Origin: Nitrosopumilus sp. | GTDB lineage: Archaea > Thermoproteota > Nitrososphaeria > Nitrososphaerales > Nitrosopumilaceae | Assembly: GCA_965219345.1 (NCBI GenBank) | Contig: OZ244732.1 | Location: 1,696,001-1,760,000 of the forward strand | Length of the DNA: 64,000 nt | Direction of reading: 5' to 3' | Shown: piece by piece, positions 22,375-22,455 of the stretch | How the letters are laid out: each line of letters begins with the position of its first letter | How positions within the stretch are numbered: the stretch's first letter is position 1 | Position numbers and translations under genes: made by a program | The notes under the pieces: generated by a model | What the model was told of the DNA's origin: nothing | Database searches by the model: none | Seen by the model: the letters and a program-made list of their open reading frames with translations, nothing else

Positions 22375-22455
22375 GCCATGATAGTCTAGTGGTAAGACGC
22401 CAGTCTCCTAAACTGGTCATGTAACGTGACGGGGGTTTGATTCCCTCTCATGGCG
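22375..22455 (+). tRNA. tRNA-like gene, anticodon CCT (Arg codon AGG) on a serine-type scaffold
   Basis: GCCATGA/TCATGGC acceptor, GTCT/AGAC D stem, CCAGT-CTCCTAA-ACTGG, 5-bp variable arm TCATG/CGTGA, GGGGG-TTTGATT-CCCTC, G73. Confidence 0.85.

Follow-up and report, generated by a model that had tools for sequence, protein, structure and literature searches.

Class-II tRNAs whose body and anticodon do not match are already known from soil bacteria as well as from nematodes and other eukaryotes. The bacterial representatives are the allo-tRNAs (Mukai et al., Nucleic Acids Res 2017, PMC5389517), which, according to the parts of the article considered here, combine a serine-type body and a long variable arm with diverse non-serine anticodons; among these, UAU predominates, and anticodons for AGA/AGG and leucine codons are represented. 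The same parts describe that allo-tRNA genes often lie beside toxin-antitoxin and transposon-related genes, and that the authors doubt a role in translation for all of them. The nev-tRNAs, or eukaryotic V-arm tRNAs (Hamashima et al., Nucleic Acids Res 2012, PMC3333845), combine a class-II structure with the canonical 7/5 fold. In the sections of that paper on which we draw, their anticodons (Gly CCC, Ile UAU) belong neither to leucine nor to serine and charging follows the body; it is also stated there that class-II tRNAs are charged independently of the anticodon.

Here, we describe an archaeal case, a class-II tRNA gene with the anticodon CCU, which is located in a stretch of 64,000 nucleotides (the window) of a Nitrosopumilus genome. 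An initial annotation of this DNA had compared the tRNA with the bacterial allo-tRNAs, and this comparison proved to be apt: as in the accounts of allo-tRNAs cited above, a serine-type body is combined with a non-serine anticodon, and both a toxin-antitoxin pair and a transposase are found in the neighborhood. However, allo-tRNAs are bacterial and have a 12-bp branch of acceptor and T stem that is split 8/4 or 9/3, whereas the CCU tRNA is archaeal and has a 7-bp acceptor stem and a 5-bp T stem, i.e. the 7/5 fold already recognized in the initial annotation. Furthermore, unlike the allo-tRNAs as described in that article, the CCU tRNA is situated inside an IS6-like element and is preceded by a conserved hairpin. 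The nev-tRNAs differ from it in being eukaryotic, leucine-charged and associated with rare codons, and no transposon linkage is apparent in the sections of the paper referred to above. By analogy, the CCU tRNA would resemble both groups in its working, but it is a member of neither. What is new is thus the archaeal case, the ordinary 7/5 fold and the carriage by an IS. A literature search, outside of which lay subscription papers and supplements, yielded no description of such tRNAs in these archaea and no tRNA passenger in IS6 elements.

The CCU tRNA gene

The gene is located at positions 22375-22455 on the forward strand, which correspond to tRNA positions 1-73, and was found by ARAGORN, by Rfam and by our own covariance model. 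ARAGORN calls a tRNA-Arg(cct) at 22374-22456; the Rfam model RF00005 matches 22375-22455 (+) from model position 1 to 71 of 71 with 62.3 bits and an E-value of 4e-11 (gathering score: 29), and the same positions are the top match in the genome for our covariance model R1 (84.7 bits). The acceptor stem comprises 7 bp (GCCATGA/TCATGGC) and starts with G1-C72; it is followed by U8 and A9, the D stem GTCT/AGAC with the D loop AGTGGTA (G18 G19 U20 A21), G26 and the anticodon stem CCAGT/ACTGG, which encloses the loop CTCCTAA (U33, CCU, A37, A38). The variable region of 14 nt (TCATG-TAA-CGTGA-C) forms an arm of 5 bp, one of which is a G-U pair; the loop of the arm comprises 3 nt, and a single nucleotide on the 3' side is left unpaired. 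The T stem GGGGG/CCCTC also contains one G-U pair, the T loop TTTGATT carries U56 in place of C56, the discriminator is G73 and CCA is not encoded. All 26 of 26 stem pairs are intact, and U8, A14, G18-G19, U33, T54-Psi55 and A58 are present; position 56 is a U, not a C, and could form a G19-U56 wobble pair. Four paired stems plus a 5-bp variable arm, GCC/GGC ends, G73 and U20 had all been listed in the initial annotation, and every one of these details is correct. The folding energy amounts to -29.7 kcal/mol (z -3.05), a value that none of 200 shuffles reached, and the minimum-energy structure includes the acceptor, variable-arm and T hairpins. The locus is not an assembly artefact, because contigs of four public runs (DNA-like, with contigs up to 92 kb) match window positions 20544-24500 exactly. 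Taken as a whole, positions 22375-22455 represent a structurally intact tRNA gene.

The initial annotation had named removal of the 14-nt arm as an intron among the findings that would refute its reading. In that case, the arm would be a non-canonical archaeal intron and the mature RNA an ordinary class-I tRNA-Arg. Non-canonical introns are frequent in the phylum according to the part of a published study used here (PMC8450103), and the host's own tRNA-Arg(CCU) contains an insert in its D loop. The arm, however, consists of five consecutive base pairs and a 3-nt loop and has no bulges; ~9 nt would have to be removed for a 5-nt loop to remain, and A20 is absent from the tRNA. Since the helix is uninterrupted, it does not contain a bulge-helix-bulge motif, which consists of two 3-nt bulges with a 4-bp helix between them. 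In addition, the arm covaries as a helix in the family described below, where 4/4 of the variable-arm pairs have changed on both sides in the alignment of 29 members. We have discarded the intron, whose probability we regard as negligible, in favor of a plain hairpin that covaries as a helix.

Relationship to the canonical tRNAs of the host

ARAGORN finds 52 tRNAs in the 1.9-Mb genome. The nearest canonical relative of the CCU tRNA among them is tRNA-Ser(CGA), encoded at 49780-49861 (-) of the window, with 72% identity, which bears out the likeness to this gene that had been reported initially; the identity to canonical tRNA-Arg amounts to 44-53%. The CCU tRNA and tRNA-Ser(CGA) have in common the D loop AGTGGTA, U8-A9, G26, G73, G1-C72 and the class-II arm architecture, but the anticodon of tRNA-Ser(CGA) is a serine one, and its T loop, CTCGAAT, contains C56. 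The serine tRNA also possesses tight orthologues in the relatives examined (G177, G135, G065 and G100) and, unlike the CCU tRNA, has neither an IS context nor an upstream hairpin. In the canonical class-II tRNAs of the clade, G73 is found in tRNA-Ser and A73 in tRNA-Leu. The long arm, G73 and G1-C72, by which archaeal tRNA-Ser are recognized, are all present in the CCU tRNA, while a serine anticodon (GCU or NGA) is absent, the anticodon being CCU. With respect to tRNA-Arg, the anticodon is an arginine one, and exactly the same loop, CTCCTAA, is present in the canonical tRNA-Arg(CCU) of the host; however, the class-I body with A20 is missing, as the CCU tRNA has U20 and the 14-nt arm, whereas each of the four canonical tRNA-Arg of the genome carries A20 within the D-loop sequence GGATA and has a variable loop of 5 nt. 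G73 is common to the CCU tRNA and at least three of the four canonical tRNA-Arg, with an ambiguous discriminator in tRNA-Arg(UCG). These comparisons show that the body is serine-type and derived from tRNA-Ser, in agreement with the initial assignment to a tRNA-Ser body: it is class II with G73, G1-C72, U20 and a serine-style arm with one unpaired 3' nucleotide.

The canonical class-I tRNA-Arg(CCU) of the host, with A20 and a 5-nt variable loop, is encoded at C1:638711-638802 (-). It was missed by both ARAGORN and the Rfam tRNA search, and was found by our own scan for CCU stem-loops followed by a T arm. An insert of ~15 nt in its D loop is most likely a non-canonical intron. As the host already has a tRNA-Arg(CCU), the window gene duplicates an anticodon that is already served, and does so on a body without arginine-type features. 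This canonical class-I tRNA with A20 and the location of the CCU tRNA in a decayed IS are two points that go beyond the initial annotation. Of practical relevance for annotation, ARAGORN labels the odd tRNAs by the anticodon alone (Arg, Ile, Leu).

The insertion and its IS6-like element

A comparison with 20 same-genus genomes revealed that the CCU tRNA gene lies in a 3.86-kb insertion (19776-23637), which was found in 0/20 of the genomes compared. The insertion is flanked by imperfect 17-nt direct repeats (family D6) at 19759-19775 (AAAAGGTTATAAAGCTT) and 23638-23654 (AAAAAGTTATAAAGTTT). Its flanks are contiguous with a 17-nt overlap in two of the relatives (G207 and G209), and are adjacent in six others (G183, G204, G213, G214, G216 and G203).

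Within the insertion, a decayed IS6-like transposase region was identified at 21002-22266 (+) by Pfam, tblastn and blastn searches. The leader of the transposase starts at ~21002 and is followed by the ORF pieces 21119-21607 (SWIM zinc finger), 21714-21998 and 21919-22266 (rve / DDE_Tnp_IS240). The Pfam matches of these fragments are weak; they align by tblastn in two pieces with an intact copy at 34668-35789 of the window (34-39% identity, E-value 2.7e-56), and the region is 73.5% identical to C1:211481-212698 in blastn. It is via the intact copy that the fragments between 21119 and 22266 can be assigned to the DDE transposases of the IS6/IS240 type: this copy matches Pfam DDE_Tnp_IS240, and its top NCBIfam match is the IS6 family with 114 bits, which is under the cut-off of 125. 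The terminal repeats of the element begin with GGTTCTG, as is typical of the ends of IS6 elements. The element thus resembles the IS6 family in its transposase match and its ends, but differs in the score below the NCBI cut-off and in the N-terminal zinc-binding domain of the protein. In the single element whose ends are clear, no 8-bp target duplication was seen. For the decayed IS, the left end is uncertain and possibly lies near 20852, with a weak likeness to a left end at 20863-20889.

The right end is located directly behind the tRNA. The 55 nt following the tRNA (22456-22510, +) align with the block that lies behind the transposase stop in tRNA-less copies (...GAGAAGA..CGATAACGTTACAGAACC), in which the right end is found ~45-60 nt past the stop. 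In the window, the block reads ...GAGAAGA...CGATAAGCTAACAGAATC and terminates at 22510 with a degenerate terminal inverted repeat, ...GCTACGATAAGCTAACAGAATC; this right 23-nt terminal repeat is about six positions off the nearest consensus. The element around a second CCU tRNA of the genome has 24-nt terminal repeats (GGTTCTGCTAAGTTATGGG(A/G)ATAT), which are identical at 23/24 positions and clear on both sides. In addition to the two CCU tRNAs, the right-end block follows the UCU tRNA, one tRNA with an 8-nt anticodon loop and a weak tRNA-like sequence. The transposase family comprises ~30 copies or fragments in the genome, most of which are without a tRNA; conversely, a transposase match is found at a distance of at most 175 bp from 8 of the 11 odd tRNAs of this genome, and the median distance to a transposase is 144 bp for the odd tRNAs versus 17,152 bp for 41 canonical tRNAs (Mann-Whitney p 5.6e-6). 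The link to the IS is weaker in other genera, where a transposase match lies within 2.5 kb in 3/14 further contexts. Since the right-end block comes after the tRNA, the tRNA would be carried as a passenger in the interval that separates the transposase from the right end of the IS. Judged by its surroundings, the CCU tRNA hence appears to be not a core gene of the host but a passenger of a decayed IS6-like element in a strain-specific insertion, and an insertion sequence that holds a tRNA at this place would be a concrete vehicle for its spread.

A different arrangement is seen in a pair of tRNAs with the anticodon CAG, where the tRNA is located 49 nt upstream of the transposase start (34533-35789 (+) of the window and C1:1218941-1220191 (-)). 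The window copy, a 'tRNA-Leu(CAG)' with G73, precedes the intact IS6-like transposase of 373 aa. Between the two copies, the tRNA and the 49-nt spacer differ by one mismatch, and the transposase genes are 77% identical. The real tRNA-Leu(CAG) of the host (C1:491459-491543) is quite unlike the CAG copies and, as a canonical tRNA-Leu, belongs to the A73 type. The idea that the IS uses a private code was rejected: in eight transposase copies, CTG is found at leucine or hydrophobic, AGG at Arg/Lys and ATA at isoleucine columns, with no sign of recoding to serine.

Just outside the right end of the IS lies a two-gene toxin cassette (22551-23035, +), which consists of an ORF of 77 aa without a family match (22551-22784, +), an antitoxin by position only, and a toxin of the ParE family (22781-23035, +; Pfam ParE_toxin, E-value 6.3e-10). 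A perfect 16-nt palindrome, GGTACCCATGGGTACC, is located at 22534-22549 just upstream of the 77-aa ORF and may be the operator of the cassette. The insertion further contains a GC-rich, MITE-like repeat element with 37-nt inverted ends (I1) at 20263-20570, which is multi-copy: contigs of 4/4 runs break there, and the summed depth is several-fold elevated. ORFs at 19845-20190 were considered as integrase remnants and dismissed, as they have no Pfam match even at E<=1. Variation between runs of the same organism was observed in a poly-C tract at 20694-20708, from which one or two bases are left out, and two runs have a 2-base deletion at 21690 in the transposase remnant. Elsewhere in the window, DNA-methylase and restriction genes are represented by fragments (N6_N4_Mtase, DUF1156, Eco57I-like, Type ISP C-terminal domain) at 27438-30069, 37659-40453 and 43248-43748, interleaved with three further transposase genes (31557-32639, 34668-35789 and 44862-46472); the whole looks like a decayed defense and mobile-element region.

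The upstream hairpin

Upstream of the CCU tRNA, sequence inspection and comparison with other family loci revealed a hairpin, CCCCTGA-TCAGACGTTACAG-TCAGGGG, at 22334-22360 (+), behind which a run of T residues extends from 22363 to 22368; the tRNA begins 14 nt past the hairpin. L039, a UAU member of another genus, has almost the same loop sequence (TCTGACGTTACAG). Hairpins of a comparable kind precede members of the family both in this genome and in others, with many members sharing the module; the stem covaries, the loop starts with T-Y-W-G-A-C or TTGAC in eight loci, and a T-rich or TATA-like stretch is found behind the hairpins of the family. No such hairpin was seen upstream of the canonical tRNAs read (0/9). 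The spacing between hairpin and tRNA falls into two classes of ~32-38 nt, which leaves room for a promoter, and ~10-15 nt, to which the window gene belongs. About half of the family have a TATA-like box at the usual distance; the window gene has none, because the hairpin and T run are only 14 nt away. A terminator scan left the upstream hairpin unflagged, the loop of 13 nt being larger than the limit of the tool (8).

A family of class-II tRNAs with changing anticodons

The genome encodes nine class-II tRNAs with G73 and non-serine anticodons (CCU x2, UCU x1, GAU x2, UAU x2 and CAG x2) beside a full canonical set; two further odd tRNAs are class I and have 8-nt anticodon loops. As BLAST searches with the tRNA alone gave matches in only 2/200 other genomes of the family, a covariance model was needed and was built from 15 such sequences. 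At E<=1e-12, it has 15 matches in this genome, which is the maximum among 151 genomes of the family, a tally that takes in three unpublished genomes used for no other result; the next genomes have 12, 11 and 9 matches, and most have 2-8. Among 39 class-II matches of the model from five relatives, 16 are canonical tRNA-Ser, 4 canonical tRNA-Leu, 2 oddities with A73 and 17 odd tRNAs with G73. Pattern scans of metagenome contigs gave no match to the family, and scans of viral contigs gave no relevant one, their single match being a class-I tRNA-Phe(GAA) gene that is unrelated and belongs to a 16-tRNA array.

The homologues with varied anticodons for which the initial annotation had suggested a search are therefore present: an alignment of 29 distinct class-II tRNAs with G73, drawn from seven genomes of the family including this one, comprises nine anticodons. 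It was assembled from model matches and a pattern scan of species genomes, in which, of 78 matches, 12 archaeal loci were scanned (7 of them titled Nitrosopumilaceae/Nitrosopumilus) and 66 were left out by title. G73 served as the selection criterion, so that the A73 oddities L105 and L110 were left out. GAU and UAU are borne by six members each (two of the GAU members with an 8-nt loop), UAA by five, CCU and GAA by three each, ACC and CAA by two each, and UCU and CAG by one each; the three CCU members stem from two genera. Stem cells are paired to 94.1% (shuffles: 66.2%) and the acceptor stem to 99.5%, 22 of the 25 pairs have changed on both sides, the covariation measures were reached by 0/500 shuffles and no slid register comes close. 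U33, a purine at position 37, A38, G18, G19 and G1-C72 are each found in 29/29 members, as is G73, for which the members were selected; A20 occurs in 0/29 and C56 in 27/29. Of 25 non-redundant members, 20 have a nearest relative with another anticodon, which is often only one base off (UAU/UAA, UAA/CAA), and pairs with the same anticodon are barely more similar than others (0.616 versus 0.563; permutation p 0.002, with the kinship between members ignored). A constant loop frame around a shifting anticodon is what would be expected of tRNAs that meet the ribosome and are charged regardless of their anticodon. These patterns point to a family that is under selection as tRNA, with fast turnover of the anticodon, and the family is large enough for both to be seen together.

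The initial annotation had considered that U56 might reflect early decay, which seems unlikely. The second CCU tRNA of the genome (C1:1235417-1235498) has U56 too, although compensatory changes set its acceptor, D and anticodon stems apart from those of the window gene and its arm is a different one, and the cloverleaf is kept throughout the family; U56 is thus probably not a sign of decay. The T-arm pattern with U56 was found only in these two CCU tRNAs among 401 genomes searched, and the third CCU member, which is from another genus (G065), has C56. U56 as a trait of a subfamily beyond this genome was rejected, since the pattern occurs in 0/400 other genomes of the family.

Possible functions of the CCU tRNA

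SerRS of the archaeal/eukaryotic type recognizes its tRNAs by the long variable arm and G73, without using the anticodon. As SerRS reads these features, and as the gene lacks the A20 of canonical tRNA-Arg, charging with serine would be the most likely outcome if the CCU tRNA is transcribed. We lean, with some reserve, towards the reading that the gene encodes an intact, serine-derived and IS-borne tRNA, which, if transcribed, would be charged with serine and render AGG ambiguous, as an archaeal counterpart of the allo-tRNAs and nev-tRNAs. A descendant of tRNA-Ser, whose anticodon had changed to CCU, would have been riding an IS6-like element between the transposase and the right terminal repeat, and this element, now decayed, sits in a strain-specific insertion of 3.9 kb. 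The CCU tRNA belongs to a family of 'hairpin + class-II tRNA' modules of the Nitrosopumilaceae, in which the cloverleaf and the anticodon loop appear to be of translation grade and the anticodon itself to shift by single bases. Charged with serine, it would compete with tRNA-Arg(CCU) and tRNA-Arg(UCU) of the host at AGG codons, and thereby lead to a low-level Arg-to-Ser ambiguity. AGG is used 5.5 times per 1000 codons and accounts for 15% of the arginine codons. Since it is not rare, efficient insertion of serine would be costly; since it occurs at this frequency and is canonically served, the ambiguity would be partial and tolerable only at low expression. That one genome encodes nine such tRNAs argues that they are weakly expressed, cognately charged or not engaged in decoding. 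Speaking against the serine reading are also the transposase in three fragments, the degenerate terminal repeat, U56 in place of the near-universal C56, the lack of a TATA-like box at the usual distance and the weaker IS link in other genera.

Anticodon bases are strong determinants for ArgRS in several organisms, and ArgRS might accept the CCU tRNA through C35/U36 despite the long arm and U20, in which case the IS would add capacity to decode AGG in the form of a working extra tRNA-Arg. The anticodon loop shared with the host tRNA-Arg(CCU), A37 as expected for ANN codons, G73 as in most canonical tRNA-Arg and the retention of CCU by three members in two genera would be in line with this; however, both A20 and the short variable loop of the four canonical tRNA-Arg are missing, the identity of the body to these tRNAs is low, and the frequency with which the nearest relative carries another anticodon fits an anticodon-blind identity, so that we rate an additional tRNA-Arg as rather unlikely. 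Unlikely as well, in our estimation, is a role of the tRNA-like RNA and its 5' hairpin for the IS itself instead of for translation, for which the anticodon would be irrelevant; the RNA could serve as a signal for processing or punctuation, regulate the expression of the transposase or act as a recognition element. The fixed place beside the right end, the conserved upstream hairpin and the quick turnover of anticodons are compatible with such a role, as is the near-identity of tRNA and spacer in the CAG pair when set against the more divergent transposase genes. In the parts of the allo-tRNA article considered here, the authors likewise raise the possibility that translation is not the role of most allo-tRNA(UAU) (PMC5389517). 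Most transposase copies, however, are without a tRNA, which is hence not needed for transposition, and U33, the purine at position 37 and A38 are invariant around the changing anticodon, as selection for decoding would bring about. Finally, the gene might be a silent relic, i.e. a once-functional passenger of a dead IS without visible decay so far. The broken transposase, the degenerate terminal repeat, U56, the short hairpin spacing without a TATA-like box and the lack of the insertion in the relatives compared would suit a relic; but not one stem pair is disrupted in the tRNA, whereas the flanking 23-nt terminal repeat departs from the nearest consensus at about six positions, and U56 and the short spacing are not damage peculiar to the window copy, because both recur in other members. 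We consider a relic quite improbable.

Going further than the serine-charged CCU tRNA that we favor, one may speculate that IS6-like transposons of ammonia-oxidizing archaea harbor and spread serine-accepting tRNAs whose anticodons have hopped by single steps from serine ones (GCU to CCU/UCU and NGA to NAA, and from there UAA to UAU, CAA to CAG and GAA to GAU). The modules would be mobile, would blur the code, each under the control of a hairpin-governed promoter of its own, and would place serine at arginine, isoleucine, leucine, phenylalanine and glycine codons. This scenario, its hop routes included, is doubtful and put forward tentatively; if it is true, archaea would possess a source of regulated mistranslation that is both natural and transposable. 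In this genome, the codons whose ambiguity is at issue are AGG, AGA, AUA, AUY and CUG.

Further atypical tRNAs

Several other tRNAs deviate from the canonical set. The two A73 oddities of the relative G135 are class-II tRNAs: L105 (G135:C1:1908149-1908233) has the anticodon AAG and an encoded CCA, and L110 (G135:C1:1537145-1537231) has the anticodon UAU and a mismatched acceptor stem; both may represent a leucine-type counterpart of the family. A dedicated synthetase beside a family copy of G135 was considered and rejected, as the class-I synthetase ORF found there encodes an ordinary archaeal LeuRS, of which the end of the locus leaves the C-terminal part. In G145, two near-identical odd tRNA(GAU) genes (G145:C1:45296-45379 (-) and 45670-45753 (+)) diverge from each other at a distance of ~300 bp. 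The two class-I tRNAs with 8-nt anticodon loops in the Nitrosopumilus genome are encoded at C1:787950-788025 (-) and C1:1438222-1438293 (+), with the loops ATTCGTAA and ATTCCGAC; both adjoin a C-terminal fragment of an IS6-like transposase and have the same kind of hairpin upstream. An 8-nt anticodon loop is also present in two family members of G135 (CATGATGA). Furthermore, a tRNA of 122 nt with the loop CTTAAGA (Leu UAA) and apparently two inserts, which was found only by our own covariance model, is encoded at C1:869754-869875 (+).
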